NCBI GenBank assembly: GCA_964587175.1
Contig: CAZPKK010000001.1
Coordinates: 7,684 to 71,683 of the forward strand
DNA: 64,000 bases
Reading direction: 5' to 3'
Origin: an uncultured Clostridium sp.
Lineage (GTDB): Bacteria; Bacillota; Clostridia; TANB77; CAG-508
Shown here piece after piece: positions 43,850 through 64,000 of the stretch (positions within the stretch are counted from its first letter, which is position 1; each line of letters opens with the position of its first letter). The position numbers and the translations under genes are program-made. The notes beneath the pieces were generated by a model. It searched no databases. It saw nothing but the letters and a program-made list of their open reading frames with translations, and was not told the origin of the DNA.

Positions 43850-43862
43850 ATCCCATGAAAAA

Positions 43863-43897
43863 AGCTAGTATTTTCAAGTATTTACTAGCTTTTTTTG
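43863..43897. terminator. Bidirectional hairpin between the CRISPR array and cas2
   Basis: AGCTAGTA ... TACTAGCT 8-bp stem flanked by AAAAAA and TTTTTTT. Confidence 0.5.
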
Positions 43898-43945
43898 TTT
43901 AAAAAACAATTGAAATTCATGATAATTTTCTAAAATATAATGTTT

Positions 43946-44266: not shown

Positions 44267-45161
44267 ACCTGTACTCTTCTAACTTAATCAAATTTGGTAA
44301 TTTAATTAAATTTTCTTTTCTATTCATACTAGTTGAAAAGCTTTTTATCATGTACTCGATAGCACCTTGAATATTAAATTTTTTGCCATCTATTAAAACC
44401 AAACAATTTACAATTTTAAATATTTCTTTTTTATTTTCTGGAGTTAATATATCATCATTTAAATTTACTTTTGTTAATACATACAAATCTACAATTGGTC
44501 TAAAGCATTCTATAAAGTCATCAGCTAAATTAAAGTTATTTAGCTGACTATGATGAAATATACCTATAGAGGGTTCAAAACCATACATAACTAATGTCCT
44601 CGCTATCATTCCTCTTATTATGGCATATCCATAGTTTAGAGCTGCATTTTGTATGCATTCTAAATCTCTATTAAATTCTTTTCCAAAAATAAGTTTAAAA
44701 TATAAACTTGCAGCTTTTGCTTCTACATTATTTTTATCTCCTGATGTAATTCCAATAACCATTTCTTCTAGTTTAGTATATTCTTTTATATCTAATTCTT
44801 TTAAGCATTTAGCTTGATTTTGTATCTTTACTTTTATTATGTCTTGCCATATCCTTTTTGTTAAAGGTTTAGACATTTCAATTTGCTTTTTTATATTTTT
44901 TAACTGCCTAGAATAATTATTAGTGCCTATTAAAACACCAGTTGGAAGATGTTTTTCATCACAAACATAAACAATTACATCATGCTCTATAAATTTCTTT
45001 AAAGTATAAGTACTAATAATGCTTCTTAAAGATTCGATACAAACACTATTTAAATCTTCTAATGGTATAGTTATTTCGTCATCTGTTTCCTTAACAACTA
45101 ATTGTTCATTTTTTATCTTTAGGTGCACATCATTTTGTAAATACACATTTCTAAAAGCCAC
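44259..45161 (-). CDS. cas1: CRISPR-associated endonuclease Cas1 (type II)
   Basis: 300 aa; N-terminal beta domain, conserved Cas1 core (NYGYAIIRGMIARTLVMYGFEPSIGIFH); between cas9 and cas2. Confidence 0.9.
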   Translation of the reverse strand: MAFRNVYLQNDVHLKIKNEQLVVKETDDEITIPLEDLNSVCIESLRSIISTYTLKKFIEHDVIVYVCDEKHLPTGVLIGTNNYSRQLKNIKKQIEMSKPLTKRIWQDIIKVKIQNQAKCLKELDIKEYTKLEEMVIGITSGDKNNVEAKAASLYFKLIFGKEFNRDLECIQNAALNYGYAIIRGMIARTLVMYGFEPSIGIFHHSQLNNFNLADDFIECFRPIVDLYVLTKVNLNDDILTPENKKEIFKIVNCLVLIDGKKFNIQGAIEYMIKSFSTSMNRKENLIKLPNLIKLEEYRYA

Positions 45162-45240
45162 AATTTTACGCTTAAAACACCTATCTATATAATGCTAGAA
45201 TGAATTAGTTTTAAGATAAATATATAAGCTTCCTCCTTCC

Positions 45241-48200
45241 TTACTTTTTTATGTTAAAAGGCATTCTTTTTTCTGGTATTTTCACTTCATGATAATTACC
45301 TAAAACATCAACTTCATATTTTTTGAATTCTTTTAGTGATTTTATTCCTAAGCTGGATTGTGTAAATTTGTTATCATGTGTTTGAATTGTTATTTGGGCA
45401 ACAGATATTCCTGCTTTTACATAATAAGCAAAAGTATCATCTACTTCTATCTGCTTTTCATTTTTATTATTTGGATTAAGTTTTATTTTGTTTTTTCCTT
45501 TAACATATATCAAATCTTTTGGATATATTGAAAATATAAAATCTCCATCTTTCATTTCTTTCCAATCTTCATATTGCTTAGCAGCAACACATGCCTTGTT
45601 TGGTAATTTATCCTTTATAGTATCACTTACATATATTGGAATAAAGTAATATCCTTCCCCTTCTACATAGAAAACATCTAATCTTACACATTCTCCATTT
45701 CCAGCAAATCCTTCTCCATTTTTTAGTTTTACGCCCAATGTTGTATTTGCTTCAATTTGCACTTTTCTAACTATTGGTCCTTTACTTCCATCTTTCCTTG
45801 ACTTATAAAAATCTTCTTTGAATGCTTCTTTTCCATTTCCGTTAAATTTAATTAATTGTTCTTTCAAAGCATTATATAATAATTTATCATCTTGCTTATT
45901 CTTTTCTAGATAACCTTCTATTTCTCCATTTTTATCTAATTTTAGTTTTGTTAGCTCTGTTTTAGTTATAGTTTTTAATTCTCCATTTTCTTCTTTTATA
46001 CCTCTTATTGTTTCTAGATGTGCCATTCCAGTCACTTTTCTTCTTGGCATTCTAGATACAAAAATAGGTTCTACATCTTCATAATCATCATAAGTAAATA
46101 TTTTTTCTGCATTCAAGCACTCAATCATTCTTTCCTTTGTTTTACAATTAACTCTTATATCTAGTTCTTTTCTAAATTTAGGCCATGGCTCTGGAAAATA
46201 TATTCCATTTTTTTCTTCGTATTCTTTTGCATCCAATATCTCTCCTGTTTCTAAATCAATATATTCTCCTTTATTGTTCATATATTTTCCATCATTATAT
46301 TGATAATATTTGGTTATCCTATTTATCATTCCTTGAGTAGTTATAGCTATAACTGCTGCATCTACTGCATGATGTATATCTCCATCTCTAGTTTTTTCTA
46401 TTCCCAATCTCTTTCTTATATGTGCTGTTACAGATCCATTTACTGTCCATACTTTTCTTTTAAAATTAGGATTATCAGAAAAATCCAGATGATTTCTAAC
46501 TAAATTATACATAAGTTTACTCATATATTGTGTATCTTGTATGTTTCTATCCTTCCAGTCTTTAGCATCTTCTTTAGTAAAATCTTCCCTTAATAATCTT
46601 CTTAGCTTTTTAGGATTCTTTATAATATTGCCGGGTTCTCACAACATATTCATCTATATCTCTTCCTATCTCTTTTTCATATTTATATGGTACTCTATTT
46701 CCTTTTTGCCTATTCTCACTAGCTAAAACTAAAACCTTATTATTATATGTATCATCAAAACACATACTATATGGAATAATATGGTCTACATCTACCACTT
46801 CTGTAAATAATTGTTCCACCGATATCTTTTTACCAGAATATACACAAATTCCATCTTGCTCTTCCCATAATTTGTATTTAACAATATCTTGTCCAGTTGG
46901 ATTTGATTTCCCTAGTTCTATAATTCTTTCTTTTATTCTTTCATTTTTACTCATATTTTCTTCTTGAGACTTTTCTATCTTTCTTCTGTCATTAAAGTTC
47001 TTACCAATTTCTCTCGCAAGTTCTATTACCACAACATCAGGCTTTCCATATTTAGCATTGTATCTAAGAGTTATAGCATTTAATACCTTTATAGCTTGAG
47101 AAATACCTCTTCTAACTACAGGATTAGATATTTCTTGTTCCAAATCTTTCAATCTTAGTTTTCTTTTCTTCTCTGTATTTACAGTTCCTCTAAAATCTTC
47201 ATAAACACTATCAACAGCTTTATCATATGTAACACCTTTTTCAAGTTCAAGTATTATTTTTTTCATAGCTTTAATAGATAAATTTCCAACTTTTGTAAAA
47301 CTTAATTTTAGTAATTCTTGAATAGCTTCATCAGATAAGTTTTGTGTATTTTCTTTCAAATATGCTATCCTCTTATCATCATTTTTATATACAGTTAAAG
47401 CATATCCAATACTATCTAATTCATCTGTAGATAATCTTTCTATATATCCTTTTTCTACTCTATTTAGTGCAGTTTTAATTTTATTATAGCTTTCAAATTC
47501 TTTAAATTTATTGGCTTTTTCCACTTCTTCATTTGTTTCATCAGACCACATTAATATGTTCTTATATGTAAGCATATTAAATCTTTCATTTCTTTCTAAT
47601 TTAAGCTCTTTCCTTAAAGTAGCATACGTTATACTTGCTTTTTCTTTTACTAATTTTATTATTATCTGTCTTTCTTCTTCAGTTAATTCTCTTTTCTCTA
47701 TCCTTCTTGTATCAAAATCATATTTATTAATTTTAATATGATTAATATCTTGTAATAATCTAAAATATTCAAAAATATAACTTGCTTTTGCTGCTCTTTT
47801 TTCATCTTTTTCAAAAGTGCAATTGCCTAGCATTTTTTCTATTTGATTTCCTGCATATGGACTAGGTTCTCCTGGTCCTTCATCAAAACTTCTTTGAGAC
47901 TCAAATATTTCTAAATATTCTTTTATAAAGTCATCAGTTATATTAGAATTTAACTCTTTTTGTTTTTCTAGTATCATTTTTATTTCATCAACTAATAACT
48001 TCCTAAGTGCTGTATTTTTGTATTCATTTATTGAGTTTTTTATCTTTATTTGTTTGTTTCCTTTTTTGTCTAATATGTATTCTCCATTTGAATTTTTTAG
48101 TTTAAATTTATCATCTTTTAAATACATTTCTGCTACTGTTCTATATCCTTTTTCTTTCATTAATTCTTCATTTTCTTTTGTAGCAGTAAGTAATTTTCCT

Positions 48201-48640
48201 GCATCATTTCCAGATGAATTTTCCTCTGATTTACTATTAGACTTATACCCTCTTTTTTTAACCATACTTATCAAAACTCTAGCTAAGTCTTTGTTTGTAA
48301 TTTTCTCATCTAAAGCCATTACTCTTAATTCATAAACATTAAATTGAAATCTATAATTTTCATATAAATTCTCTAGTTCTTTTTTGGAAATAATATTATA
48401 TCTCTCAAGTAGCCTCTTCGTTCTTTCAACTCTATGTTTCTTTCTTCTTAGCCTTCTTCTTAATCCTCTTGCATCTCTTCTGTTTTTAGCTAAAGGTGAA
48501 CCATCTTTTGGATTTTCTGCTGCATCAAAAATTCTTGATCCTAAATCAATTATTCTTTTTGGTTTTCCATTCTCATCATCTTCTATTGCTGCCCATCCAA
48601 CTGAAGTTATTCCGATATCTAGTCCGATTCTATAGCCCAT
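45241..48640 (-). pseudogene. cas9: cas9 (type II-C-like, ~1130 aa) interrupted by a +1 frameshift in a CCCGG run
   Basis: True start is the ATG at 48640 (MGYRIGLDIGITSVGWA, RuvC-I; AGGAGGGA RBS). HNH (DVDHIIPYS...NKVLVLASENRQKGNRVP) is in the upstream fragment. RuvC-III (DGDIHHAVDAAVIA) is in the downstream fragment. The frames overlap at 46613-46638; deleting one C/G at ~46631-46636 restores a continuous reading ...EYVVRTGNIIKNPKKLRRLLREDF... Confidence 0.85.
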
Positions 48641-48654
48641 ATTTTTCTCCCTCC

Positions 48655-48792
48655 TATAACTGAAGATAGCTGCCCTTTTAGAGGCAGCTAGAGCTTTACG
48701 ACTCATAGATTTTACAACAAAATCTAGGTCTTATTGTAATAACCTATTCTACTTTGATATGATATAATTTAATGTGCAATTCCCTTGCACGA
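48655..48792 (-). ncRNA. tracrRNA: Candidate tracrRNA
   Basis: On the - strand: sigma-A-like promoter TTGACA(48825-48820)-17 nt-TAGTAT(48802-48797), then a 36-nt near-copy of the repeat at 48733-48768 (4 mismatches). Transcribed antisense to the crRNAs, this gives the anti-repeat. It is followed by two hairpins (TAGATTTT-gttg-AAAATCTA and GC-rich TAGCTGCC-tctaaaag-GGCAGCTA), ending just before the cas9 RBS. Confidence 0.5.
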
Positions 48793-49726: not shown

Positions 49727-50233
49727 ATGTATATAAATAAGGGAAAACGCACCATTTTAATTTTTCCAGAATTTAGTAATTTAGACGAAATACAAAAAAT
49801 CCGAAATAAATATGATCCATTAGCACAACTTATTCCCCCTCACATCACAATAGTATTTCCATTCTCAGATGATATCTCCAACGAGGAATTAATTTCAAAA
49901 TTAACTAATCTAATTAAATCTTTCTCACCTTTCAAAGTTATATTTAAAGGGCTATCTTTATCAAATGATAACTATATCTTCCTAAATTGCATAAAAGGCA
50001 ATGATGAAATTATACAATTACATGATGAAATTTATGCAAAAATACTACCAACACATCTAAAAAAATCTATAAAATATATTCCTCACATAACTTTAGGAAG
50101 AAGCAATTCCTTAGATGGCATAGAATTGGAAAAAGAATTTGAAACGTTTGTAAATGAAATAACTATTGAATTAGTTGGAGAAAATGAAGAATCAATTTTA
50201 ATAAAAAATATAAAATTAGGAGAGCCTTTATGA
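49727..50233 (+). CDS. 2H phosphoesterase superfamily protein (LigT/2'-5' RNA ligase-like)
   Basis: Two H-x-T-x motifs (PPHITIVFPF and PHITLGRS) in a ~170-aa protein. RBS AAAGGAGG. Confidence 0.7.
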   Translation: MYINKGKRTILIFPEFSNLDEIQKIRNKYDPLAQLIPPHITIVFPFSDDISNEELISKLTNLIKSFSPFKVIFKGLSLSNDNYIFLNCIKGNDEIIQLHDEIYAKILPTHLKKSIKYIPHITLGRSNSLDGIELEKEFETFVNEITIELVGENEESILIKNIKLGEPL

Positions 50234-51604: not shown

Positions 51605-53959
51605 TTATGCTTCTTCTATAATCTCATATCCAGCAATCTTATATCCTTTTATTCTTCTAAAATACATTTTTTCTAAAACTTTCATATTATCCAAATAATC
51701 ATAAACAATTACTTTACTTTTATCTTCATGTTCTCGGTGAAGTCTTCCTACATATTGCAATATTCTTCCTTTCCATGAAACTGGCATGGTCAAAAATAGT
51801 GTATCTAATCTACTATCATCAAAACCTTCTCCTATAGAACTACTTGTCGCCAAAATTATTCTTGGTTTATTGTTTTTATCAGCTTCATCAATAATGTCTC
51901 GAATTTCTTTTGATTTTTTCTTTCCCATTGCTCCTTTATAAATAACAACTGGAACATTTATACTATCTAATTTTTCTTTTAATATTTTCAAATGTTCTAC
52001 CCTCTCTGTTAAAACAATAGGAATTCTACCCTCTAAAACACATCTCTTTATATCTTGAACTATCATATTATTCCTAAATATATTATGACACATGTCATTT
52101 AAGATTTCTGAAATTTGTATTTTGTCTTTTCCTTCAGTAGAAATATATTTATAACCTGTACTCTTTACAATTACTACATGTTCCATTTCTTTATTTTGTT
52201 TTAATTCGCGATTTGCTACTCTAACTCTTATGTCCCCACATTGCATATAAATAATTTTATGCCATCCATCTTTTCTTGTAGGTGTTGCTGTTAAACCATA
52301 TACGTATTTACTTCTTATAGCTTTCAATACTTTTTCAAAACTAAATGCTGCAACATGATGACATTCATCTATTATAACAAGCCCATAATCCTTAACTATC
52401 TCATTTAAATTGTCTTTCTTGGCTAACGATTGAAAACTAGCTACATCTAATTTACCATTTAAATTTTCTTTACTCGCTCCAATTTGTCCTATTTCTTTTT
52501 TATTTATATTTAGGAAATATGATAATCTTTCTTTCCATTGTTCTAATAAATTATTTCTATTTACTATAACCAAAGTATTTGTTTTTAACTCTGAAATAAT
52601 TTTAGCTCCTATAACAGTTTTTCCAAAACCTGTAGTAGCACATAATATTCCTGTTTCATATTTTAATAACTCATTTTTTACATTTTCCTGCTTTTTATTT
52701 AGTTTTCCTATAAATGTATAATCTGTATTAATTCCTTTTTCTCTTGTATCTTTTATAATTAATTTAACATTGCTTTTTTCACATACTTCTTTAATTTTAT
52801 CTATGCATCCTCTAGGTAATTTTAGGAATCTATCATCTTCCTCAAAGCAACTTATGATCCTTGGTGTTTTATATATAGGTAGTCTTAATTTTTGTTTTTC
52901 ATAAAATTCTGGATTAGTAAAACTAGCTAATCTTTTTAAATAAGATACTTCATTTGGTAACAATTTTAGTTTTTTAACATAAATCATATTATCAAATATA
53001 CATTCTACATTATTTACAAATTTAATTTCTCTTAAATTTTCTTTTTCAGGCAATTCATCATCTTCTATCTGCTCTACATCAGGTTCTTTATAATCATCTT
53101 CTCTATATTTATTAACAAAATTATAAACATCATCACTTTTAATTCTTTTTATATTTTTCAAAATTTCAAATTGATTTTTTTCTGGCTCAAAATATTTATT
53201 TACAAAAACTGTATTTCCACTATTGCTACTTTCTCCCTGAAAAGGTAACGCTATTAGATTACCAAATCCACCTTTAGGCATTGTATCCTGATTTGGAAAT
53301 AACCTATCATATGAATCCAAGTCCAATGATTCTTTCTCCATCGTTTTTGTTAAAAGAATATTTCCCATTTTTCTAGCAACATTTGCTGGCATACTTTTTT
53401 CAAAAAATATCCATACATGCGCTCCATTTCCAGATCGCGATTTTTCAACATATATTGGTATATTTAGTTCATCACATATATTCCAAAATGCTAATACATC
53501 TTTCTCATAAGTCTTTTTATCAAAATCTATTGCTAGAAAATTACATAAATCTCCCGGTAATAGTGGGTAAATTCCTATAGTTATTTTTCCTTGTAAATGT
53601 TTTAATATAACATCTTTTGTTAAAGGTTGTAACTCTCTAAAAACACAATTATTGCATTTAACTCTTGGTTTATCACATTTATATGTATTAAATTCATTTA
53701 TACATACTGGTGAATACCCTGATTTTCCGCTTTTACTACTTGTCCACCTTTTTGCATAAATATCTGTCCTTCCTTTAAATATTTCCATAAATATTTTTAT
53801 TTTTTCTTCAGTTGAAATAGCTTTTGTTTCTTTTCTTATTTCTTTTTCTTCTACTTTTCTGTCTAATTTTCCATACAATTTTTCTTTTAGTTCTTTATTT
53901 TCTTTTTCTAATTCTTTTAATCTTTCTTTTAATTCTTTTTTTCCTAATTTTTCTAACAA
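51605..53959 (-). CDS. Fusion protein: N-terminal coiled coil + Zn-finger + AEP primase-polymerase-like domain, C-terminal SF2 (DECH/ResIII-type) helicase
   Basis: TTG start with AAGGAGGG RBS. Cx2C...CxxC (PVCINEFNTYKCDKPRVKCNNCVF). AEP-like motifs FLAIDFD (DxD), SRSGNGAHVWIFF (sGxGxHxW) and GGFGNLIALPF. Helicase motifs I TGFGKT, II VIIDECHH, III LTATPTR, VI QYVGRLHR. Confidence 0.6.
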   Translation of the reverse strand: MLEKLGKKELKERLKELEKENKELKEKLYGKLDRKVEEKEIRKETKAISTEEKIKIFMEIFKGRTDIYAKRWTSSKSGKSGYSPVCINEFNTYKCDKPRVKCNNCVFRELQPLTKDVILKHLQGKITIGIYPLLPGDLCNFLAIDFDKKTYEKDVLAFWNICDELNIPIYVEKSRSGNGAHVWIFFEKSMPANVARKMGNILLTKTMEKESLDLDSYDRLFPNQDTMPKGGFGNLIALPFQGESSNSGNTVFVNKYFEPEKNQFEILKNIKRIKSDDVYNFVNKYREDDYKEPDVEQIEDDELPEKENLREIKFVNNVECIFDNMIYVKKLKLLPNEVSYLKRLASFTNPEFYEKQKLRLPIYKTPRIISCFEEDDRFLKLPRGCIDKIKEVCEKSNVKLIIKDTREKGINTDYTFIGKLNKKQENVKNELLKYETGILCATTGFGKTVIGAKIISELKTNTLVIVNRNNLLEQWKERLSYFLNINKKEIGQIGASKENLNGKLDVASFQSLAKKDNLNEIVKDYGLVIIDECHHVAAFSFEKVLKAIRSKYVYGLTATPTRKDGWHKIIYMQCGDIRVRVANRELKQNKEMEHVVIVKSTGYKYISTEGKDKIQISEILNDMCHNIFRNNMIVQDIKRCVLEGRIPIVLTERVEHLKILKEKLDSINVPVVIYKGAMGKKKSKEIRDIIDEADKNNKPRIILATSSSIGEGFDDSRLDTLFLTMPVSWKGRILQYVGRLHREHEDKSKVIVYDYLDNMKVLEKMYFRRIKGYKIAGYEIIEEA

Positions 53960-54358
53960 AGCTATTCCCTCCTTTTATGTCTATATATTATATACTATTT
54001 TCAAGATTTTATCAAATTATGTAAATTTAACTTTTTTGTGATAAAAGATATACCCTTTTATTAATGATTTTTAAACATATTTGCTATCTACCATATTTTT
54101 AACTTTATAAATTATATACTTTGAGTCAGTTGAATATTAATTTAGAATTCAATTATTTTTGTCAAATTTAATTTCATAAGTTATAAAAATAAAGTGGGCA
54201 ATTTGAATTTTATAATTTTTCATTTTGCTCACTTTATTTATAAACTCTGCAGTGTTCTCTGCAGGAAATTTCTATCTTTTTCATTTTATATATACTTTTT
54301 TAATTATTGATTCATTAAGCGACATTTTTTAAAAAAACATCGCTTTCAACCGTCATTT

Positions 54359-55807
54359 TTATTGTTTTTGAAATTTATATTTTGTTCCTTCAGCCTTAAT
54401 GATAAGATTCAAATCTAAAAGTAAAGAAATTAAATTAGTTGCTCTTGTATCTTTTATATTTAAAATGTTCTTTATATCTTCCCTAGAAAACATATTGTTG
54501 TAGCCCATTTTTTCAAAAATATTTCTTATTTGATTTATTGTACTATTTCTAATATTTGTATTTTGTATACTTTTATATAACTGTATAAAAAATAAGTCTC
54601 TATCTGAAACAATATTTTTATTTTCATCCATTTCATTTGTTTTATAATAGCCCTTATTAGGAAATATCACTGTAAATGATAGAGAATCAGAAATAAATTT
54701 TGGTTTTTGAATAGAATCATTATAGCTCTCCAATATTCTACTTAATCCACTTCCCCTACGATCCATGTAATGTAATCTACTGAAAACATCTGCAATTACA
54801 ATATTTCTTCTCATAGATGGAATATTTTTTATCTCCAGATTTTGAATAAGACTGCCATCAAACATCCCTCCTGGTGAAGTAATTTCTAATCTATCATCAA
54901 ACATATCTATATGAATTTCTGCTCCTAAAATCTGATAATCTCTGTGAATTAATGCATTTACTATTGCTTCCCTACGTGCAGTAATGGGATATTCCTCTAG
55001 TTCTTGTCTTTCCATTCCTACGACTTTCCAAGACATTTTAGAATTATTTTTTATAAAAGAATCTGCATTCTCTAATAATGCTATAATACTTCCATTATAT
55101 TCCTTGTCATCAATTGCATCTTCTGCTATTATTCCCTTATTTAAGCCTTTCCACCTAGTACATACAATTTTAGACTGCTTTAAGGGATTTTGATCACTTA
55201 ATAATAGTCCTGCATTTGTTAGTTCTTTTTCAGTGTTAGCTAAGCCCAAAGAAAAGAAATCTTTATTTTCATCAAATTTTTTATTCGTTTTTTCTTTTAT
55301 AGTCGCTGCTAACAAAGTAAAACTTAAATCATTAATTTTATAATCTGTTGGTAATGCATCAAATGTTAAATTTTTTCCTTTTAATATAAGATTATTTAAT
55401 ATATGTTCTGGAGCGGGTATACTTTGATTTCCAGAACGAATAAAAGCTTCTTTTCTTCCATCTATTACTAAATAATATGGAGTTGACGGTCCATCTCCTA
55501 TTTTTAATTCTAAAAAATCTTTTCCATTTTCAGTAAAAGAATTTATTTCATATCTAGGTAATGGTAAAATTCTAGCATTTATAATTTCAGTAATTTTTTC
55601 AGCTACCTGTTGAATATTATCTAATCCTTTTAGTTCATGTGTACTGTCATCCACTCCGAATAAAATGATTCCACCTTTTGAATTAGCAAATGCGGATACT
55701 GACTTTAACCAACTTTTAGGTTTTTTTTCTTCTAATGCAATTTTATAATCAATATTACTTGTCTCTGCTTTTTCATAATCTTTTATCTTCAAATTATATA
55801 CCTCCAC
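54359..55807 (-). CDS. Schlafen/AlbA_2 domain ATPase with C-terminal HATPase_c_4-like domain (RecG-C-terminal-like putative regulator)
   Basis: N-terminal AlbA_2 signature (ETSNIDYKIALEEKK...LKSVSAFANSKGGIILFGVDD). C-terminal REAIVNALIHRDY motif typical of the HATPase_c_4 family. RBS GGAGGT. Confidence 0.65.
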   Translation of the reverse strand: MEVYNLKIKDYEKAETSNIDYKIALEEKKPKSWLKSVSAFANSKGGIILFGVDDSTHELKGLDNIQQVAEKITEIINARILPLPRYEINSFTENGKDFLELKIGDGPSTPYYLVIDGRKEAFIRSGNQSIPAPEHILNNLILKGKNLTFDALPTDYKINDLSFTLLAATIKEKTNKKFDENKDFFSLGLANTEKELTNAGLLLSDQNPLKQSKIVCTRWKGLNKGIIAEDAIDDKEYNGSIIALLENADSFIKNNSKMSWKVVGMERQELEEYPITARREAIVNALIHRDYQILGAEIHIDMFDDRLEITSPGGMFDGSLIQNLEIKNIPSMRRNIVIADVFSRLHYMDRRGSGLSRILESYNDSIQKPKFISDSLSFTVIFPNKGYYKTNEMDENKNIVSDRDLFFIQLYKSIQNTNIRNSTINQIRNIFEKMGYNNMFSREDIKNILNIKDTRATNLISLLLDLNLIIKAEGTKYKFQKQ

Positions 55808-55864
55808 ATTATAATTTTAATATTATATTATCACTTTTATGCTTTTATTACAACCAATTTTTAT

Positions 55865-55893
55865 AAAAAATGTCGCTTATAAGCGACATTTTT
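55865..55893. promoter_or_regulatory. Perfect 29-nt palindrome AAAAATGTCGCTTATAAGCGACATTTTT, followed at 55901 by a third AAGCGACATTTTT copy
   Basis: Read directly. It sits in the 196-nt gap between the MTase gene end and the AlbA_2 gene start. Likely a terminator for the upstream operon and/or an operator. Confidence 0.5.
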
Positions 55894-56003
55894 GCATATA
55901 AAGCGACATTTTTTCTTTACTATTCTATTATATTTCTATCATTTAACACATATTTAAATATTTTTGAATTATTTTTATGTATTTTAATTCTAATATTGAT
56001 ATT

Positions 56004-57329
56004 TTAATTATTTTTACTTTTTAATCCAATCAGTGCTCTTGCAATAGCTTTTGATAATAATGGTGGTACAGCATTTCCAACTTGAACATATTGAGCTGTT
56101 CTTGGACCTTCAAACAAATAATTATCAGGAAAACTTTGAATCCTAGCTGCTTCTCTAACTGTTAATGCTCTACACTGTTTAATATCTGGATGAATATTAT
56201 AATGTCCATCCTTGCTTATATGAGCAACTATTGTATGTGGTACTTCATACATTCCATGTACTTTAAATCTATCTGAAAATGATTTTTCATTTTTATGTGT
56301 TTTTAAATTTTCTGGTAATTCGTTATAATAAAGTTTCTCCTTTTTATTTGCTTTTTTTATTGCCAATTGATAAATCTTCTTATCACGATCATTTAATTTT
56401 CTTGCTTTGTGATTTAAAATTCCTATACTATCTTTTCTTAAGTATTCTTCATACTTTGATTGAGGGAGATTCTTATATTTTACAATTTTTCTATCATATC
56501 CTTCTCCATCTTTCAGTTTATTTAAATCTAATATAGCATTTTTAGTATTAATATCCTCGTCAAATTTTTCTGCATATTTTTCAAAATCTGGATAGTCATA
56601 ATTCAAGTCTCTTCTTACTCCAAATAATATTACTCTTTTTCTAGTTTGATATACACCATAATTTATAGCTTCTTGAAGATTCTCTTCTTTATTCTTATTA
56701 TTTCCTACTTTTAACATGTAGTCAATTTTACTGAATTCTTCTGAAATTTCATCAAATATTTTTCCTTTTTGAGCTGTAAATATCCCAGGTACATTTTCAA
56801 ATATAAACATTTCCGGTTTGTATTTTTTTACTATATCTCTATAATAGTAAAATAAATAATTTCTTTCATCTTCTTTTACTTTTTCCTTCATTCTACTTCT
56901 TCCAATTACAGAATATGCTTGACATGGAGGGCCTCCAATTATGATATCTACTTTTTTTTCTTTTAGATATCTCATTGATTTATCAATCAATTTAAATATC
57001 TCATTTATATCTGTTGCATCTTTATCTTTTTTTACATTTCCAAATTTTTTATTTAATACTGTTTTATCCAATAAATCTCTTAATTCAGGATATTTTTTAA
57101 AAACAATTTCTCTATTTTTATCTACATTATTATAATTATCTGATGATAATAAATATTTATTATACATCTCCAAATCATCTTTTTCTTTTAAATAATAGTA
57201 CATTATTCTTGTTTTTAATGTTTCACATGCCCAATATTCTTTTTCAATATGTGCTACAAATTTATATCCTTCACTTAAGAAGCCTTCTGTTAAACCTCCT
57301 GCACCTGAAAACAAATCTATTACTACCAT
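56004..57329 (-). CDS. DNA (cytosine-5)-methyltransferase
   Basis: Motif I VIDLFSGAGGLTEGF, motif IV GGPPCQAYS, motif VI FIFENVPG, motif VIII QTRKRVILFG, motif X VGNAVPPLL. Confidence 0.9.
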   Translation of the reverse strand: MVVIDLFSGAGGLTEGFLSEGYKFVAHIEKEYWACETLKTRIMYYYLKEKDDLEMYNKYLLSSDNYNNVDKNREIVFKKYPELRDLLDKTVLNKKFGNVKKDKDATDINEIFKLIDKSMRYLKEKKVDIIIGGPPCQAYSVIGRSRMKEKVKEDERNYLFYYYRDIVKKYKPEMFIFENVPGIFTAQKGKIFDEISEEFSKIDYMLKVGNNKNKEENLQEAINYGVYQTRKRVILFGVRRDLNYDYPDFEKYAEKFDEDINTKNAILDLNKLKDGEGYDRKIVKYKNLPQSKYEEYLRKDSIGILNHKARKLNDRDKKIYQLAIKKANKKEKLYYNELPENLKTHKNEKSFSDRFKVHGMYEVPHTIVAHISKDGHYNIHPDIKQCRALTVREAARIQSFPDNYLFEGPRTAQYVQVGNAVPPLLSKAIARALIGLKSKNN

Positions 57330-57338
57330 TTTATTCTC

Positions 57339-59030
57339 CTATAAATCTATATTTTGTTTGCATAGAATATACAATAATAACTTTGCTCTTGAAATTGCAA
57401 CATAATTTAATATTTTAGAATCTATATCATTTACTTTGTCTACATCACAAAGTATTATAATTTTTGATTCTAATCCTTTAAAGCTATGTATTGTTGAAAA
57501 TCTTATATAATCATCTTGCTTATTTTCAGAATAGTCTGCAATATTTTTTACTCTGGCTATATCTTTTAAAAAATTATTTCCTTTAAATACGCTATCTTCA
57601 TAATTATATCTAGACAAAATTGTAATTTCATTATTTTTTATTCCATTCATTTTTAATCTTTTAACAATTCTTTTTATTTCATTCTTTTGACTAATTTCAT
57701 CGCCATACTTTATTATTTCTACATCCTCACCTATTGCTTCATCATTTATACTTTGGATTATTCCTGTTATTTTCACATTCATATTAGAAATCTGCATTGT
57801 ATTTCTGCAATTTTTAGTTAGAACTGTTATTACTGGTCTTATATCTTCTTCTAATAATTCTAGTAATTCTTTAAGTTCATTATTATATAAATTCTGCTTT
57901 TCATCTAATGCCATATACCAATTTCCGTTTTTTAGACCACCATATATTAACTTATCTAAACATTCAATATATTGTATTTTTATTAAATCTTGAGCTTCAT
58001 CTAATAACATCACTTCATATTCTTCATTATCGATTCTTATAAAATCTTGTGGTAATTGAGTTTCAAAAAATTTACTTGTATTCTCTACTATATAACTATT
58101 ATCTACCTTTCTAATTTTTTCTAGCATATAAGCATGTAAACTTGTAATTTTTATATTATTTTTTATTTCATTATCTTCTTGTTTTAATCGTTCATTTAAA
58201 TACTTACTTAATACTTTATTATAACATACAAATATTACTTTTTTCCCTAGTGCAGATAATTCAAGTGCTTTTTCATATAATAAAACAGTCTTTCCAGTTC
58301 CTCCTGTTCCTTTAATTATTATTCTTTTATTTTCAGACATAGAATCTAATATTTGTTTTTGTTCTTTAGTTAACTTTATTAATATTTTCTCTGTAGATTT
58401 CAATTCTGATGCCAGACTTTGTGAATATCCAAAATCTCCTCTTAATATAGTTGTTATTCTACTTACTTCTGAATTATTTAAAAAACTTCTTTTAGCATTA
58501 TATTTTTTAAAAAACTTGTCTGAATGATATTTAAACACATTATCAATTATTGTCTTTATATCACTATCTTGTAGTTTTTCAATATCTATTGTTATTTTTC
58601 CTTCTATATCTATTTCCTGCCTATCAAAAACTATATCTGGAAAAGCTACAGCATATGCAAACTGAATATTAGAAACATTTATATTTGTATTACTTAACCT
58701 ATTTCTTAAATATTTCATCAATGAATACATATTTTTAGATACTTGATCATATGGTCCTTCAACTTTTTCATTTTTATTTCCATATCTATCTGTAAAAATC
58801 CATATTCCTTCCTTTCTTTCAACTCTTCCACCTTTTACTTCTATACATAATATACCTTTTGGACATATTATCAAAAAATCTATTTCTCCTTCTACTTTTT
58901 GTATATGCTCCAATAATTTTAATGAATGCATTACAATATATTCATTAGGTAATTCCTTTAATTTTTCAAACATTTTCTTTTCAGCTGAACTACAATTTTC
59001 TATAATTTGATTTGGTATCATTTTTGCCAT
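57339..59030 (-). CDS. NERD nuclease-like domain fused to UvrD-like (SF1) helicase/ATPase
   Basis: N-terminal NERD pattern (GEIDFLIICPKGILCIEVKGGRVER), Walker A GTGGTGKT, C-terminal UvrD-C-like motif IRFSTIHSFKGLESKIIIL. RBS AGGAGAG. Confidence 0.7.
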   Translation of the reverse strand: MAKMIPNQIIENCSSAEKKMFEKLKELPNEYIVMHSLKLLEHIQKVEGEIDFLIICPKGILCIEVKGGRVERKEGIWIFTDRYGNKNEKVEGPYDQVSKNMYSLMKYLRNRLSNTNINVSNIQFAYAVAFPDIVFDRQEIDIEGKITIDIEKLQDSDIKTIIDNVFKYHSDKFFKKYNAKRSFLNNSEVSRITTILRGDFGYSQSLASELKSTEKILIKLTKEQKQILDSMSENKRIIIKGTGGTGKTVLLYEKALELSALGKKVIFVCYNKVLSKYLNERLKQEDNEIKNNIKITSLHAYMLEKIRKVDNSYIVENTSKFFETQLPQDFIRIDNEEYEVMLLDEAQDLIKIQYIECLDKLIYGGLKNGNWYMALDEKQNLYNNELKELLELLEEDIRPVITVLTKNCRNTMQISNMNVKITGIIQSINDEAIGEDVEIIKYGDEISQKNEIKRIVKRLKMNGIKNNEITILSRYNYEDSVFKGNNFLKDIARVKNIADYSENKQDDYIRFSTIHSFKGLESKIIILCDVDKVNDIDSKILNYVAISRAKLLLYILCKQNIDL

Positions 59031-59054
59031 ATCTAATTTTCTCTCCTCTGTAAC

Positions 59055-60830
59055 TTATCTCTCTTCGTTTTGATAAAACTCTTTAAAAAATCCTATTTCT
59101 AAATTATCTAATCTTCCTCTTATTGCTGCTCTATCTAACAAAATATTTCTTAATTCACAACTTGTTTCTGGCAAGAGCGTACATGCATGGCAAGCGACTA
59201 AATTTAAATCTTTGTATCCTGATTGTTCTCTTTCTATGCACAATGGATCTGTTGAACACCAAGCCATATTTTCTATAGTTTTTTCTAATATTTTTTCAAA
59301 TTTTTTTGTTTTTCCTTGTTTTACCAATCCCCCTAGACTACCATCTGAATCACTAGATGTTGTATATATTAATATACCAGCCATATCAATTTTCCCATCA
59401 TCAAATGTAGTATAAATTCTCTCTTTTAAAGCTGTAGAAGAATACCCACATTCAAAAGTTAATTGTCTTATAATTGCATGTGACAAAGTATGTAGCAAGA
59501 TAGTTCTAGGTGTTATTGCTTTTCTTAATCCTTTTAAATATCCTTCTTCCTTTCTATTAACTATATATTCATATCTTCTTTTTACAGCTACTCTATTTTC
59601 CCATTCTTGAATTTTTGCTTTATTAAATTCTATAAATATTCCTTCACCTTTCTGATTCACTCCTGGTAACCATTTTTGGTTTATTTTATCAGTTAACCTA
59701 GTATAAGAATTACTATCTATTAGGTCATATTCTGGGTTTATCCTTTTAAAACCAACTTCTACAATTGTTTCTGTCATTTTCTTTACTAATATTACTTTAT
59801 TTATATATTTATTTATGAATTCTGGTACCTGTTCCTCTTTAGTTATAAATTCGTCTTCATTTGCTTCCATTCTTAATGCTTTATATTCATCTTCTAATAA
59901 TTCATTAAATGTTAACTCATCTCTATTTTTTTCTGCTAATACTGCTTCTACCATATAATCTGCTTCTTCTTTTGATATATTGTATAATCTTAATAATTTA
60001 TTTATTATTGTATGTATTAACATTTGTGTATTATCAAAATCTTCCTTATTTTCTTCGTAAAATTTTTCTATTTTTTGACTTATCTCTTTGCTCCAAGGAG
60101 GTATTAATATAGAACTTACAGTTATTGGAAAATATACTGATGAAGATGATCTTTGTAAAGTAACTACATTTTCACTACAATGCTCTCTCTTGTCTCCTAA
60201 CCAAGATTCTTCACCATTGCATTGTACTTTAAAAGTTCTCTCACTAAATGTTGCTCCCATATCTCTTTTTTTACCACATTCACATTCAATTATTATAGAC
60301 TTCAATTCTCCAGTTTTTCCTGTATCTTTTATTTTCATCATTTTATTGCATTCAGTTGGTCCTCCATGTACCCATTCACGATATGGAAAATCTGAAATAT
60401 GTCCTTTCTCACAAGCTACAACAAATCTTGATGGAATTACTTCTCTATTACATTTATCACAAAAAATTTTGCCATTTTTTAATAAGAACTCTGTATATGG
60501 AGCTAATTTTTTACAAATTGGACAATAATACCACTTTGGAAATCTATATGCTTGAATATCAGGATGTAGAAAATGATTATTGGACTTATCTTTTGTAAAA
60601 GGTGGCATTAAAAAATAATCTTTTCCTAGTAAATTTTGTAATCTTATGTTATTTATTTTTAATTCATCTACATTTTCACTTTTTTCCCAACCATCAATTC
60701 CTGCAATAATTACTGATGCATCTTTTAAATCAGCTATTGCTCCAGGTCCCATTGTTGTTATTAACTGATTCCTTCTTAATTTTCCTTTAATTCTTGGTTT
60801 TTTGTCTTTTTCTATTTCCATATTTATCAT
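59055..60830 (-). CDS. DUF1998 (MrfB/DrmB-like zinc-binding domain) protein
   Basis: Multiple CxxC pairs (YCPICKK, CDKCNRE) and a C-terminal four-Cys signature (CSTDPLCIERE...LVACHACTLLPETSCELRNILLDRAAI) typical of DUF1998. Start overlaps the upstream helicase stop, suggesting translational coupling. Confidence 0.65.
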   Translation of the reverse strand: MINMEIEKDKKPRIKGKLRRNQLITTMGPGAIADLKDASVIIAGIDGWEKSENVDELKINNIRLQNLLGKDYFLMPPFTKDKSNNHFLHPDIQAYRFPKWYYCPICKKLAPYTEFLLKNGKIFCDKCNREVIPSRFVVACEKGHISDFPYREWVHGGPTECNKMMKIKDTGKTGELKSIIIECECGKKRDMGATFSERTFKVQCNGEESWLGDKREHCSENVVTLQRSSSSVYFPITVSSILIPPWSKEISQKIEKFYEENKEDFDNTQMLIHTIINKLLRLYNISKEEADYMVEAVLAEKNRDELTFNELLEDEYKALRMEANEDEFITKEEQVPEFINKYINKVILVKKMTETIVEVGFKRINPEYDLIDSNSYTRLTDKINQKWLPGVNQKGEGIFIEFNKAKIQEWENRVAVKRRYEYIVNRKEEGYLKGLRKAITPRTILLHTLSHAIIRQLTFECGYSSTALKERIYTTFDDGKIDMAGILIYTTSSDSDGSLGGLVKQGKTKKFEKILEKTIENMAWCSTDPLCIEREQSGYKDLNLVACHACTLLPETSCELRNILLDRAAIRGRLDNLEIGFFKEFYQNEER

Positions 60831-60834
60831 TCCT

Positions 60835-63800
60835 TTATTCTATAACATATATATTTGATGATGTATCAACATTCCTCATTGAATTCAAAGTAATAAATCC
60901 ATCTGTACTAGTATTTGCCTCATCTGTTCGTACTAATAAATGTTTTTTATCCTTTTTAGAATATGACAAATTATTTCCATCTGTTATTTTGTCCCAATGT
61001 TCAATTATTTGATCTAAATCTTTTTTTGCACTGTCTATTTCTTCTTTATCAACTATTTCTATTCTTTTTAAAATTTTATCAACTAATTTATATATTTCTT
61101 CTTTTTTGCTCTTAATATTCCCTGCAGATTCTTCATCTTTCATTTCTGGTATAAATTGTCTTACTAAGCTAACTAGAACAGCATGTAATGCTTTTTCCCT
61201 CGCCATATTCGAAAAAGGAGTTACACTTGTCGCTTCAACATATTTATAAATATTTGAATGATATGTTACAAATTGCTCATAATGTGACTTGTCTCTAGAT
61301 TTCGTTGCATTATACAAGTTAATTACTATAGACGGTGTTTTTCTACCTACTCTACTAGATGCTTGTATATATTCAGAATTCAATTTAGGTTGACCATCAA
61401 TTATCATTAAATTCAATCTGTCTATATCAATTCCAACCGAAATCATATTTGTAGCAAGCACATAATCTTGTGAGCCTCTTTCTGGATAATGTACCTCTAA
61501 TTTATGTAATATTTCGTCTATATTACTTTTCCCAGTATTTCTACTTGTTATTTCTACCGTATTATTAAAATAATATTTATTCATCTTTTCATAAGGCATT
61601 AATCTCTTAAATTTTTCTTTACTTAAGTATTTATATCTATCAATAACGTCATTTTTTATTTGTATTACTGCTCCTCCTAATTCTCTTATACTGTTAAAGT
61701 ATCCTACTTCAGTCCAAAAACTATCTATAACTTCTTGAGAATAATATTCCTTTTCTTTCAAATATCTAGTTGCATAAAATATTGCAGCATATACTCTTAC
61801 TAATAATGTAACAGGAGATATATTAGTTGATATTGTACCTATATACATTCTGGTTGCCTTTTGTTTTTCATTTCCCTCTTTAGCAAAAAATGAATCAGTA
61901 ATGTCTTTTATTTGTGTTGGAAAAATATTACTTTTCCTTGCATAAAGTGATTTGATTTGCTCATCAGCATTTCTTATTGTTGCAGTTGATGCTATTATTT
62001 TAGGTCTTATTCCCTTACTTGAGCAATATTCATCTATAATAGTTTCATACAAGCCTGATATAGTTCCAAGAGGTCCAGCAATAAGATGTAATTCATCTTG
62101 TATAATAAGCTCAGGTGGTAATATGTTCTCTTGATCTAATCCAAAAATCTTTCCTGTATCCTTTAACCAAGGTATTCTTGCATACTTATCCACTGTACTA
62201 ATTAATAAAGTAGGTCTTCGATTATATATTTCTTCATCTATAAGATATATTGGTAAATATCCACTTATCTCACATTTTCCACATTTTATAGCAATTCTAT
62301 CTGGTAAATCCAAATTGTACTGGTCAGGTTTTATTTCTTCCCCACACCACGTACATCTTTTAATTAAGCATGGATTATTTAAATACCTGCTTTGACTTTC
62401 CATATATTCTTTTATTGCTTTTTTTCCATTTTTTAAATATCTTTCTGTGTTTTCGCCTACCCATAATCCTATAGATATTTCTTCGTTTCCTAAAATATCT
62501 TCGTTTTCCTGTCTTAATAATTCACAGGCACAAATTAATGTTGATGCTCTTTCAAATTGTTGCAATGTTAATAGTCTTAATGTGTATCTCATAATTGCTA
62601 CTGTACCTATTGGTAAATTACCTTTTTGGGTTTGTTGTATTTTTCTAAAAAATATTGTGAATGCCAATATACCTAAGTATGCTTCTGTTTTTCCTCCTCC
62701 AGTTGGAAACCATAAAAGATCTACTATATCTCTATTATCGTTAGTTTTATCAATTATTCCATCCAAACTTAGTAATATAAATGCTATTTGAAATGGGTAC
62801 CATTGAGGATTTATTTGTTTTTTTGATTTTTTTCGCATTTGATTTAGCATTGCTTTATTCATAAACTGGAAAGCTTTAAATGCATCATCTTTTTGGTGCA
62901 ACATATCTATTGTGTTAACAATTCTATTATTAACCTCTTTTGCTTTTTGTATATTTTGATTTAAAATACTTTTTTCTCTTTCTGAAAGACTTTCATCTTC
63001 TTGTTGCTTCTTTAACCACTTATCATATTCTTTTGGGAGTTCTTGTAACTCTTTGTAAATACTCTCTTTATCAGAATTAGCTAAGAATTCCATTTTCCTA
63101 TATTTGTTTATTTCTGTTGTGTTTGGAATCATTTGGTATGTTGTATATTCAGGCAACACTTCCGTCCAGATTTTATTTGTTTCTTTTTTATTTTTGTCCC
63201 ACATAACAGCTGTTCCATTTCCAATTGCCAAATTGGTTCTATTTCTATATAATAGATTCAAATTTTCCATTTCATAATCATCAATTGAATTGAGTTGTAT
63301 TTGTTTTTCAATAAAAATATTTGATTCCTCAATTGAACTTATTTCCATTCTAACTTGTAAAAATGATTTTGTACATATTGATGATAATTCCTCTTCTTTT
63401 TCTGCTGTATTAGTATTTATTAAAGAAATTGTAGCTGTTTTTGTATTATCACTAAAAACTTTATATGTTATTATTCTCACTTCTAACCCTTCATCTATTT
63501 TTATTCTGCTCCCACTTTTTATCTCAGCTTCTTGTTGCCATTTTTTCGGAATCCTAGTCCATATTTGTTTACCTTCATTTGAGTATATAGCATAATCTAC
63601 ATTTATTCTTATATTCTTTACATTGTTTTTTATATTACAAGATATTCCCATTGATGATTGTCTATCTGTATTTTCAAGTTTTACACTTTCATCATCTTCA
63701 GCATTATCATCATTTTTATCTTCAATCATTTCTGGATCTTCATTTCTATATTCACTAACTCCTTGTGGATACAAAATTCCCAAACTATATGTTTTTATTG

Positions 63801-63900
63801 GAAGTTCATCTTTTATTGTTTCAAATTCTTCTACTGGTCCAACTAAATCCTTCTTCAATATATCATAAATTTCTTTTCGTGCTTGATAATATTTTTCCAT
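60835..63900 (-). CDS. Large SF2 DEAD/DEAH-box helicase (DrmA/MrfA-like), 1021 aa
   Basis: Walker A WFPTGGGKTEAYLG, DExH box LIIQDELHLIAGPLGT, motif III ASTATIRN, motif VI region ASSRVGRK. ~390-aa N-terminal extension. RBS AAGGAG. Confidence 0.75.
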   Translation of the reverse strand: MEKYYQARKEIYDILKKDLVGPVEEFETIKDELPIKTYSLGILYPQGVSEYRNEDPEMIEDKNDDNAEDDESVKLENTDRQSSMGISCNIKNNVKNIRINVDYAIYSNEGKQIWTRIPKKWQQEAEIKSGSRIKIDEGLEVRIITYKVFSDNTKTATISLINTNTAEKEEELSSICTKSFLQVRMEISSIEESNIFIEKQIQLNSIDDYEMENLNLLYRNRTNLAIGNGTAVMWDKNKKETNKIWTEVLPEYTTYQMIPNTTEINKYRKMEFLANSDKESIYKELQELPKEYDKWLKKQQEDESLSEREKSILNQNIQKAKEVNNRIVNTIDMLHQKDDAFKAFQFMNKAMLNQMRKKSKKQINPQWYPFQIAFILLSLDGIIDKTNDNRDIVDLLWFPTGGGKTEAYLGILAFTIFFRKIQQTQKGNLPIGTVAIMRYTLRLLTLQQFERASTLICACELLRQENEDILGNEEISIGLWVGENTERYLKNGKKAIKEYMESQSRYLNNPCLIKRCTWCGEEIKPDQYNLDLPDRIAIKCGKCEISGYLPIYLIDEEIYNRRPTLLISTVDKYARIPWLKDTGKIFGLDQENILPPELIIQDELHLIAGPLGTISGLYETIIDEYCSSKGIRPKIIASTATIRNADEQIKSLYARKSNIFPTQIKDITDSFFAKEGNEKQKATRMYIGTISTNISPVTLLVRVYAAIFYATRYLKEKEYYSQEVIDSFWTEVGYFNSIRELGGAVIQIKNDVIDRYKYLSKEKFKRLMPYEKMNKYYFNNTVEITSRNTGKSNIDEILHKLEVHYPERGSQDYVLATNMISVGIDIDRLNLMIIDGQPKLNSEYIQASSRVGRKTPSIVINLYNATKSRDKSHYEQFVTYHSNIYKYVEATSVTPFSNMAREKALHAVLVSLVRQFIPEMKDEESAGNIKSKKEEIYKLVDKILKRIEIVDKEEIDSAKKDLDQIIEHWDKITDGNNLSYSKKDKKHLLVRTDEANTSTDGFITLNSMRNVDTSSNIYVIE

Positions 63901-63916
63901 ATTTTACTCCTTTAAT

Positions 63917-64000
63917 TATTGTTCCATTCTAATTCTCCGAAACCTTCTAATTCTATGCCTATCCACATTCCAGTTTTCGCATATATATTCTGTATTTCAC
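63917..64000 (-). CDS. 3'-end of an upstream gene in the same operon (truncated by window edge)
   Basis: Open frame ...EIQNIYAKTGMWIGIELEGFGELEWNNN* ending 15 nt before the helicase RBS. Confidence 0.3.

Follow-up and report, generated by a model that had tools for sequence, protein, structure and literature searches.

A DISARM-like operon with a NERD nuclease-helicase fusion in the place of DrmC, conserved across diverged bacterial lineages

A 64-kb stretch of DNA from an uncultured Clostridium sp. (contig CAZPKK010000001.1; the whole stretch is called the window below) carries a DISARM-like operon in which the place of the nuclease gene drmC is taken by a gene for a 563-amino acid (aa) fusion of a NERD nuclease to a superfamily 1 (SF1) helicase. 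The unit consists of five genes, coding for a UvrD-like helicase, DrmA, DrmB, the NERD-helicase and a C5-cytosine DNA methyltransferase (MTase), four of which are complete in the window and occupy positions 56004-63900 of its minus strand. DISARM is widespread and its DrmAB sensor is structurally understood; its mode of action is unsettled. The evidence considered here comprises the gene identities, the intact motifs, the structure of the operon, the conservation of the cassette and the exclusivity of the NERD-helicase with DrmC. Taken together it indicates a distinct, conserved subtype of the DISARM family, which has neither DrmC nor DrmE and falls in neither published class, and the NERD-helicase is read, with moderate confidence, as the effector of this subtype.

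The features of the window are listed in Table 1. An initial annotation made from the sequence had described four co-oriented, tightly packed genes, and their open reading frames (ORFs), coordinates and intergenic gaps were reproduced, the gaps being 4 nt between DrmA and DrmB, 24 nt between DrmB and the NERD-helicase, and 9 nt between the NERD-helicase and the MTase. The second ATG of DrmB is preferred as its start, because the first ATG lies right against an AGGA ribosome-binding site and the gene call of Logan contig L001 uses the second. This contig served as the reference for the upstream gene and encodes DrmA, DrmB, NERD-helicase and MTase proteins 100% identical to those of the window. 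The RNA fold of the hairpin found past the MTase gene has an energy of -19.3 kcal/mol (z = -4.7), none of 200 shuffled sequences was as stable, and its sequence occurs only once in the window. A simple terminator scan of the window did not list it. This hairpin is a probable intrinsic terminator, ending the operon and parting it from the next gene.

Table 1. Positions of the operon genes and of other features in the window
Feature	Position	Strand	Remarks
UvrD-like SF1 helicase gene, 3' end	63912..64000	-	last 28 codons (63915-63998) and stop (63912-63914); remainder outside window
DrmA	60835..63900	-	1021 aa; SF2 (superfamily 2) DExH helicase, short class-2-type DISARM form
DrmB (DUF1998/MZB)	59055..60830	-	591 aa; more likely 588 aa from second ATG, 60821
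NERD + SF1 helicase fusion	57339..59030	-	563 aa; slot held by DrmC in canonical DISARM
C5-cytosine DNA methyltransferase, DrmMII type	56004..57329	-	441 aa
Hairpin with flanking A-run and U-run	55865..55915	-	~90-140 nt past MTase stop
Schlafen AlbA_2 + HATPase_c_4 protein	54359-55807	-	482 aa
AEP-TOTE primase-polymerase + SF2 helicase	51605-53959	-	784 aa; Pfam 1.6e-94; PADLOC CRISPR-associated PrimPol 2e-87
2'-5' RNA ligase / LigT-family phosphoesterase	49727-50233	+	Pfam 9e-23; in defence island, between cas9 and PrimPol-helicase
Type II CRISPR-Cas locus	43418-48706
CRISPR array	43418-43849		~6.5 copies of 36-nt repeat GTTGTAATTCCCTATTTTATTTTGATATGATATAAT
cas2	43946-44266
cas1	44259-45161
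cas9, two ORFs	46610-48706 and 45241-46524		split by one extra C, ACC-C-GGC, 46631-46633
Anaerobic ribonucleotide reductases (NrdD + ATP-cone), two adjacent paralogues	33524-35845, 36120-38039	-	773, 639 aa
Two very large tandem ORFs	12290-17077, 17098-22287	-	1595, 1729 aa

The 1021-aa protein is the YprA-family helicase with a Helicase_C domain that belongs to the DISARM core. It matched the PADLOC DrmA profile at 4.9e-230 and Pfam Helicase_C (PF00271) at 9.5e-9, and a PDB search returned Serratia DrmA (7s9v_A, 9e-133) as the sole match; against the NCBIfam model of 'short' DrmA, DISARM_DrmAS, it scored 920.9 bits, slightly below the equivalog cut-off of 950 bits. Its Walker A (398-408), DELH (602-605) and motif VI are intact. 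DrmB, the zinc-binding DUF1998 (PF09369) partner of DrmA and likewise a core component, has its own gene immediately downstream of DrmA (gap 4-13 nt) and matched PADLOC DrmB (4e-90), Pfam MZB/DUF1998 (1.5e-8), NCBIfam DrmB_fam (511.6 bits, cut-off 240) and, almost over its full length and as the sole PDB match, Serratia DrmB (7s9v_B, 7e-78). Cysteine clusters are found at 103/106/124/127 and 525/531/547/550. The PADLOC, DrmB_fam and PDB matches thus agree with the initial annotation, which had read this helicase/DUF1998 pair as DrmA and DrmB; the profiles place it in these families and not in Druantia or MrfAB, which had been named as alternatives.

The 441-aa MTase is of the type found in class 2 DISARM, as had been proposed for the gene at the operon end. 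It matched PADLOC DrmMII (2.6e-175) and Pfam DNA_methylase (PF00145, 3.3e-60), scored 178 bits against NCBIfam dcm (cut-off 100.65), and retains all the catalytic motifs, namely FSGAGG, PCQ, ENV, QTRKR and GNAVPP.

The gene between DrmB and the MTase encodes a protein with a Pfam NERD domain (7.7e-16, residues 16-115) followed by matches to the SF1 helicase families SLFN-g3_helicase/DUF2075, AAA_19, AAA_12 and UvrD_C_2, confirming the fusion of a NERD nuclease to an SF1 ATPase that had been placed in the DrmC slot. It can be divided into a NERD nuclease of the PD-(D/E)xK type (residues ~1-135), a helical linker (~150-233) and an SF1 helicase of DUF2075/Schlafen-group-3 type (~235-563), and it ends directly past helicase motif VI with no additional C-terminal domain. 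The AlphaFold2 model (predicted local distance difference test score, pLDDT, 88; predicted template modelling score, pTM, 0.65) comprises an N-terminal alpha/beta nuclease fold, the helical linker and two RecA-like domains, and the closest solved structures are SLFN11/SLFN14, UvrD/PcrA/Rep, Upf1/Ighmbp2 and Dna2. Across 59 NERD-helicase homologues D51, E64, K66, the Walker A motif (241-248), DEAQD (344-348) and R548 are invariant. The best full-length PADLOC matches were RTasNERD-Hel (8e-52) and C3a187 'NERD+UvrD' (2e-35), which have the same two-domain layout and different partner systems; to our knowledge, there is no experimental mechanism for either.

DrmC, the PLD nuclease of the DISARM core, was not found. 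The six ORFs from 51605 to 63900 gave no PLD (PF13091) match in PADLOC or Pfam, a hidden Markov model (HMM) built from 10 DrmC sequences returned nothing at E <= 10 from the six-frame translation of the whole window, no HKD motif was present in that translation, and tblastn with two DrmC sequences gave no match in any of the cassette loci. DrmC, the only candidate nuclease of DISARM, is reported to be dispensable and often missing; the nuclease of DISARM has been called an open question, and unlinked host PLD nucleases have been invoked (PMC9142583).

An exchange of genes at this position is visible within a single DrmA subfamily, represented by L037, L039, L047 and L052 (42-47% identical), all of which have the UvrD-like, DrmA and DrmB genes. 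DrmB is followed by a NERD-helicase gene in L037 and by one for a PLDc_2 protein (DrmC) in L039; in L052 the slot holds the gene of an unknown protein of 418 aa. The slot can be seen in 21 DrmAB loci from IMG/VR; with full-length NERD-helicases counted within 10 kb, eight of these loci carry a NERD-helicase, seven carry DrmC and none has both (hypergeometric P 0.015, uncorrected for relatedness, several of these loci being related). NERD-helicases were also found in DrmAB loci with other gene orders: between DrmE and DrmA in L035, upstream of DrmA in L055, after an extra helicase in L042, and, in L029, L056, L057 and L060, in a co-oriented unit of C5 MTase, 165-aa ORF and NERD-helicase that is convergent on DrmA-DrmB. 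On the NERD-helicase tree the DISARM-linked proteins, including the members of the cassette, are spread over several distinct branches, suggesting that they were recruited to DISARM loci more than once.

Contigs encoding homologues of the 563-aa protein, over a spread of identities, were inspected for gene context. The order UvrD-like/DrmA/DrmB/NERD-helicase/C5 MTase is kept with different flanks in at least eight lineages, the Rhizobium lineage being without the MTase; the arrangement is therefore conserved, not accidental, and the case raised in the initial annotation, that the NERD-helicase is always alone in related genomes, does not hold. Contigs L001 and L016-L020 carry the full cassette at ~92-100% protein identity to the window (L016-L020 at ~92-98%). 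Further full cassettes occur in L006 and L007 (NERD-helicase identity 76%), L008 (72%), L009 and L010 (56%), L011 (50%) and L026 (49%). The five cassette proteins diverge in parallel: for L006, L008, L009 and L011, compared with the window or its close relative, the identities are 81, 76, 65 and 53% for DrmA, 76, 72, 56 and 50% for the NERD-helicase, 88, 85, 74 and 69% for the MTase, and 73, 59, 48 and 42% for the UvrD-like protein.

More distant members extend this range. L027 and L033 from IMG/VR contain a full cassette with DrmA at 40%, DrmB at 37%, the NERD-helicase at 34% and the MTase at 39%, and this cassette matches the same PADLOC HMMs as that of the window. In L037 (IMG/VR) the UvrD-like, DrmA, DrmB and NERD-helicase genes are accompanied by a convergent C5 MTase gene. 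A complete RefSeq plasmid from a cultured organism, pTA1_2 of Rhizobium ruizarguesonis TA1 (L062, NZ_CP088106.1, 10058-19094), encodes UvrD, DrmA, DUF1998 and NERD-helicase proteins with no adjacent C5 MTase; these are 50-68% identical to those of L037, two large divergent upstream genes are common to both, and the annotation of the plasmid genes is generic ('DNA helicase / DUF1998 / NERD domain-containing protein'). The GC content of the cassette loci ranges from 27% to 62%, and the gap between DrmB and the NERD-helicase is 1-24 nt in every one of them (1-15 nt outside the lineage of the window). Scanning the GTDB representative genomes with DrmA gave no close relatives and only three distant loci at 30-34% identity; two of the three carry DrmC, and L004 is a class 1 locus with DrmMI. 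A metagenome scan with the DrmA alignment, using unspecific patterns, returned one locus, 28% identical.

The gene upstream of DrmA, which the initial annotation had guessed to be DrmE, proved to be a UvrD-like SF1 helicase gene. The window stops 100 nt before DrmA, and the stretch at 63912-64000 is identical to positions 1850-1940 of L001, the end of the UvrD-like gene there; in tblastn it is 96% identical to the intact 594-aa UvrD-like protein of L016. The UvrD-like protein matched Pfam UvrD-helicase (2e-26) and UvrD_C_2, with weak PADLOC matches to GajB (2e-14 and weaker) and RTasHel, and no DrmE match was obtained for it in PADLOC, Pfam DrmE_C or NCBIfam. As a positive control, the DrmE of L035 was found by Pfam DrmE_C at 9e-10. 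The GajB matches raised the possibility of a Gabija system; this was rejected, the matches being weak and the gene upstream in L016-L020, where the UvrD-like gene is intact at 594 aa, encoding type I HsdR and not GajA. In L001 the UvrD-like gene is frameshifted in a run of nine A (L001:376-384), giving products of 81 and 523 aa; at this site L016 and L020, with the intact 594-aa gene, read A6GAGAGG. The frameshift may be an error of assembly or a case of phase variation, or it may mark a pseudogene.

A different interruption of the UvrD-like gene, the insertion of one extra C, recurs in three lineages that have diverged from each other (L006:3768, L008:3769 and L009:3753) and falls between the same two codons in each, the lineage of the window itself being without it. 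The site lies after the DExQD-I-V motif and reads GTN C GGN ATH AGR, compared with GTG GGN in intact relatives, so that a CGG codon stands in the zero frame. In each of the three loci CGG is absent from the ~2600 codons of the remaining cassette genes, and it occurs twice in the 17,642 codons of the window. Both halves of the split gene stay open across 48-73% protein divergence. This suggests that the gene is read by a programmed +1 frameshift at the hungry CGG, or else that it has long been split in two. As a side possibility, the expression of the UvrD-like partner might be set by a programmed +1 frameshift at CGG in some lineages.

For comparison with known systems, the DISARM class definitions were taken from later summarising papers (10.1101/2021.12.28.474362; PMC9252829). 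DISARM is defined there by the triplet drmA, drmB and drmC together with a methylase, to which class 2 adds drmMII and sometimes drmE (10.1101/2021.12.28.474362); the class 2 order in Bacillus paralicheniformis is drmE-drmA-drmB-drmC-drmMII (10.1101/2021.12.28.474362; PMC9252829). The cassette shares with class 2 the separate, adjacent DrmA and DrmB genes, the short form of DrmA, a nuclease gene between DrmB and the MTase, and the terminal DrmMII-type C5 MTase. It differs in having the NERD-SF1 fusion for the PLD nuclease DrmC and the UvrD-like helicase upstream for DrmE; the latter is required by the five-gene PADLOC rule for type II, which the cassette would fail. Rule-based finders that require DrmC and DrmE will miss or mislabel the subtype. 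DrmA and DrmB of the cassette are also clear homologues of those of class 1 DISARM from Serratia sp. SCBI (7S9V/7S9W), as the matches at 9e-133 and 7e-78 show, but class 1 includes DrmC, the SNF2 protein DrmD and the N6-adenine MTase DrmMI, and its DrmA is long and carries a trigger loop.

In a full-text literature search for DISARM with NERD, UvrD or DUF2075, which did not extend to the original 2018 paper and its supplement, the arrangement was undescribed. The statement that it is no part of published DISARM definitions therefore holds for the searchable papers, and an earlier listing in the original 2018 paper, by Ofir et al., or in its supplementary tables is possible. A 2025 survey of YprA helicases describes DISARM as 'typically' having a PLD protein and mentions 'many uncharacterized DISARM-like classes', and the arrangement of the cassette is not described in it (PMC12458937).

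A mode of action may be outlined by analogy with the better-known systems. The C5 MTase would methylate a host motif and mark self DNA, as expected from class 2 DISARM, in which losing DrmMII is harmful and almost every motif carries methylation (10.1101/2021.12.28.474362). DrmAB is reported to load on single-stranded DNA (ssDNA) with a 5' overhang, and its ATPase activity is lowered on DNA containing 5-methylcytosine (PMC9142583). Because both proteins of the cassette are homologous to Serratia DrmAB, 5'-overhang sensing and a methylation-damped ATPase are the best template for them: DrmA-DrmB would load on free ssDNA 5' ends of foreign DNA, as this enters or replicates, and translocate, with its ATPase damped on methylated DNA. 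The NERD-helicase would supply the cutting step that is presumed for DrmC elsewhere, its own SF1 motor driving processive degradation; this role is proposed because of its position in the slot, its intact catalytic residues, the swap with PLD at the same slot and the behaviour of Nhi, a similarly built protein described below. The UvrD-like helicase may fill the accessory-motor position taken by DrmD or DrmE in other classes.

The operon had been presented in the initial annotation as a DISARM defence variant. Its assignment to the DISARM family, the absence of a PLD nuclease, the NERD fusion in the DrmC slot and the conservation of the arrangement all stand; DrmE does not. That the DrmC slot holds a catalytically intact, self-propelled nuclease of another kind, and that PLD and NERD-helicase alternate in the sister subfamily, both suggest that the effector encoded downstream of DrmB can be exchanged. 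The subtype thereby offers a system in which the loss of the nuclease might show a phenotype. More tentatively, the cassette could represent a third DISARM class, composed of UvrD-like/DrmA/DrmB/NERD-helicase with or without the C5 MTase, in which the NERD-SF1 protein is an obligate effector loaded or licensed by DrmAB and interchangeable with PLD (DrmC) for one sensor. If true, this would provide the first tractable handle on how DISARM destroys DNA, because DrmC was dispensable in both systems studied so far.

The fusion resembles Nhi (SERP2475) of Staphylococcus epidermidis, in which an N-terminal PD-(D/E)xK nuclease and a DUF2075-type SF1 helicase are likewise joined in one polypeptide (10.1101/776245). 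Nhi needs both activities for defence and is believed to degrade intermediates of phage replication (10.1101/776245). Upf1 and Dna2, the structures most like Nhi, also match the model of the fusion, ranking behind SLFN11/14 and UvrD. The profile match is only partial (PADLOC 1e-7, residues 183-464 aligned to 144-378 of 470 profile positions), full-length similarity including the C-terminal domain was not found, and the fusion differs in its nuclease of NERD subtype, in having no extra C-terminal domain and in its location inside a DISARM operon. Since the match is weak and partial, the two proteins appear to resemble each other in mode of action without belonging to one family.

Several observations weigh against the NERD-helicase as the effector of a DISARM subtype. 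Because L001, the closest strain to the window, has a frameshifted UvrD-like gene, the cassette may not be fully functional in the strain of the window, and few independent lineages underlie the exclusivity statistic. Stand-alone homologues exist: P0057 (L022-24), located between ABC transporter genes, and P0055 (L025) are each 49% identical to the protein of the window and have intergenic regions of their own, P0055 coming from the same sample as L002, a contig with NERD-helicase and MTase genes identical to those of the window. On a neighbour-joining tree the stand-alone clade is sister to the cassette clade reaching from the window to L009 (179/200 bootstraps), with the L011/L026 cassette clade as outgroup to both and the whole group supported by 199/200. 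Because the stand-alone clade nests inside the cassette clade, the gene has left the cassette or entered it repeatedly, and the NERD-helicase can be maintained, and can presumably work, in the absence of DrmAB. Homologues at a greater distance stand alone (Kandleria) or lie beside McrBC, and the module is promiscuous, since the best PADLOC profiles are of NERD-helicases accompanying reverse-transcriptase systems and type III CRISPR. Moreover, a gene nested in a DISARM locus is often an independent system (10.1101/2024.01.29.577857), and Nhi defends alone (10.1101/776245).

The NERD-helicase could accordingly be viewed as an autonomous, Nhi-like single-gene defence that is embedded in a DrmC-less DISARM operon, shares only its transcription, and would by itself sense and degrade phage replication intermediates. 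Besides the stand-alone homologues, both nested and more distant, this reading draws on the Nhi-like combination of a PD-(D/E)xK nuclease with a DUF2075 helicase, an architecture that in Nhi suffices for defence (10.1101/776245), on the frequency of embedding in DISARM, where embedded genes are co-oriented in 96.7% of cases (10.1101/2024.01.29.577857), and on DISARM operons often simply having no DrmC (PMC9142583). It is a serious rival, though less probable than the reading of the NERD-helicase as the DISARM effector. A passenger gene does not readily account for the fixed place right after DrmB, at 1-24 nt, which holds at identities as low as 34% and in Clostridia-like genomes as well as in Rhizobium, for a divergence that parallels DrmA and DrmB, for the exclusivity with DrmC and the PLD/NERD-helicase swap in one DrmA subfamily, or for an association with DrmAB seen repeatedly, in four gene orders; the Nhi profile, moreover, is matched weakly and by the helicase part only (1e-7). 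If the gene were autonomous after all, it would add to the examples of larger systems that harbour a nuclease-helicase defence made of a single gene.

The NERD-helicase and the C5 MTase, whose genes are 9 nt apart in the window, might instead form a cutter and protector pair resembling restriction-modification (R-M), next to a separate helicase module of UvrD-like, DrmA and DrmB proteins. The self-contained units of MTase, 165-aa ORF and NERD-helicase in L029, L056, L057 and L060 fit such a division into two adjacent systems, which is nonetheless improbable: the NERD-helicase is found with DrmAB and no adjacent MTase in Rhizobium pTA1_2, L042 and L055, and alone without an MTase in L014, L022 and L025, DrmAB is found with a C5 MTase and no NERD-helicase in L034, L043 and L058, and the MTase closely matches the DrmMII profiles (2.6e-175).

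Other YprA-based systems offer analogies to the cassette. ARMADA type II (ArmA-D; PMC12458937) also has a YprA-family helicase, an extra GajB/UvrD-like SF1 helicase gene and a methyltransferase, but its helicase is fused to DUF1998 and a Vsr nuclease, its MTase is PglX-like, and its UvrD-like protein has a RelE domain and comes last in the gene order, whereas that of the cassette comes first. In the TALON class the partner of a NERD nuclease is an ARMADA-like helicase (PMC12458937); neither it nor ARMADA II is a match. Membership in ARMADA, Druantia or MrfAB was not found, the genes being separate, PADLOC giving no DruE, MrfA or Arm profile match, and DrmA having no C-terminal nuclease. That the helicase/DUF1998 pair is a non-defence module, of MrfAB/YprA-type DNA repair, or belongs to another YprA-based system such as Druantia or ARMADA, is very improbable: DrmA shares its helicase family, YprA, with repair enzymes (PMC12458937) and scores just below the NCBIfam equivalog cut-off (920.9 vs 950), but all PADLOC matches are to DrmA or DrmB and the only PDB matches are their Serratia counterparts, separate helicase and DUF1998 genes are a trait consistent only in the DISARM branch (PMC12458937), neither an MrfB exonuclease nor a fused C-terminal nuclease is present, and the neighbours throughout are defence genes (type I R-M, CRISPR-Cas9, AbiE and McrBC).

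Between the DISARM-like operon and the type II CRISPR-Cas locus of the window lie the genes for the Schlafen AlbA_2/HATPase_c_4 protein and the AEP-TOTE PrimPol-helicase. They were rejected as members of the operon, being set apart by the terminator and accompanying the cassette only in the near-identical relatives L016-L020. In the CRISPR locus, the +1-corrected translation of the split cas9 aligns 93% gap-free to an intact Cas9 of 1132 aa, and the named Cas9 homologues from a protein search are from Clostridia metagenome-assembled genomes (MAGs). A second programmed CGG frameshift was considered for this gene and rejected, relatives of up to 91% identity being intact at 1132 aa; for the same reason the one-base insertion is likely a strain-specific mutation or an assembly error. 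The paired NrdD genes elsewhere in the window point to an anaerobic host.

Among the related loci, the class 1 DISARM locus of a Blastocatellia MAG (L004:3500-7919) has genes for an OLD/AriA-like ATPase and a UvrD-like helicase between DrmMI and DrmA. This helicase also matches the 'NERD+UvrD' profile over its helicase part and is another DISARM-nested SF1 helicase. Five IMG/VR loci (L036, L038, L040, L041 and L050) show a hybrid order of DrmMII, DrmD, a type III Mod-like MTase, a type III Res-like protein, DrmA, DrmB and DrmC, the three middle proteins being identified by PADLOC in L036; the ORFs of L038, L040, L041 and L050 have the same sizes and probably encode the same proteins. L054 is similar and shorter, with a single 871-aa ORF between the C5 MTase and DrmA.

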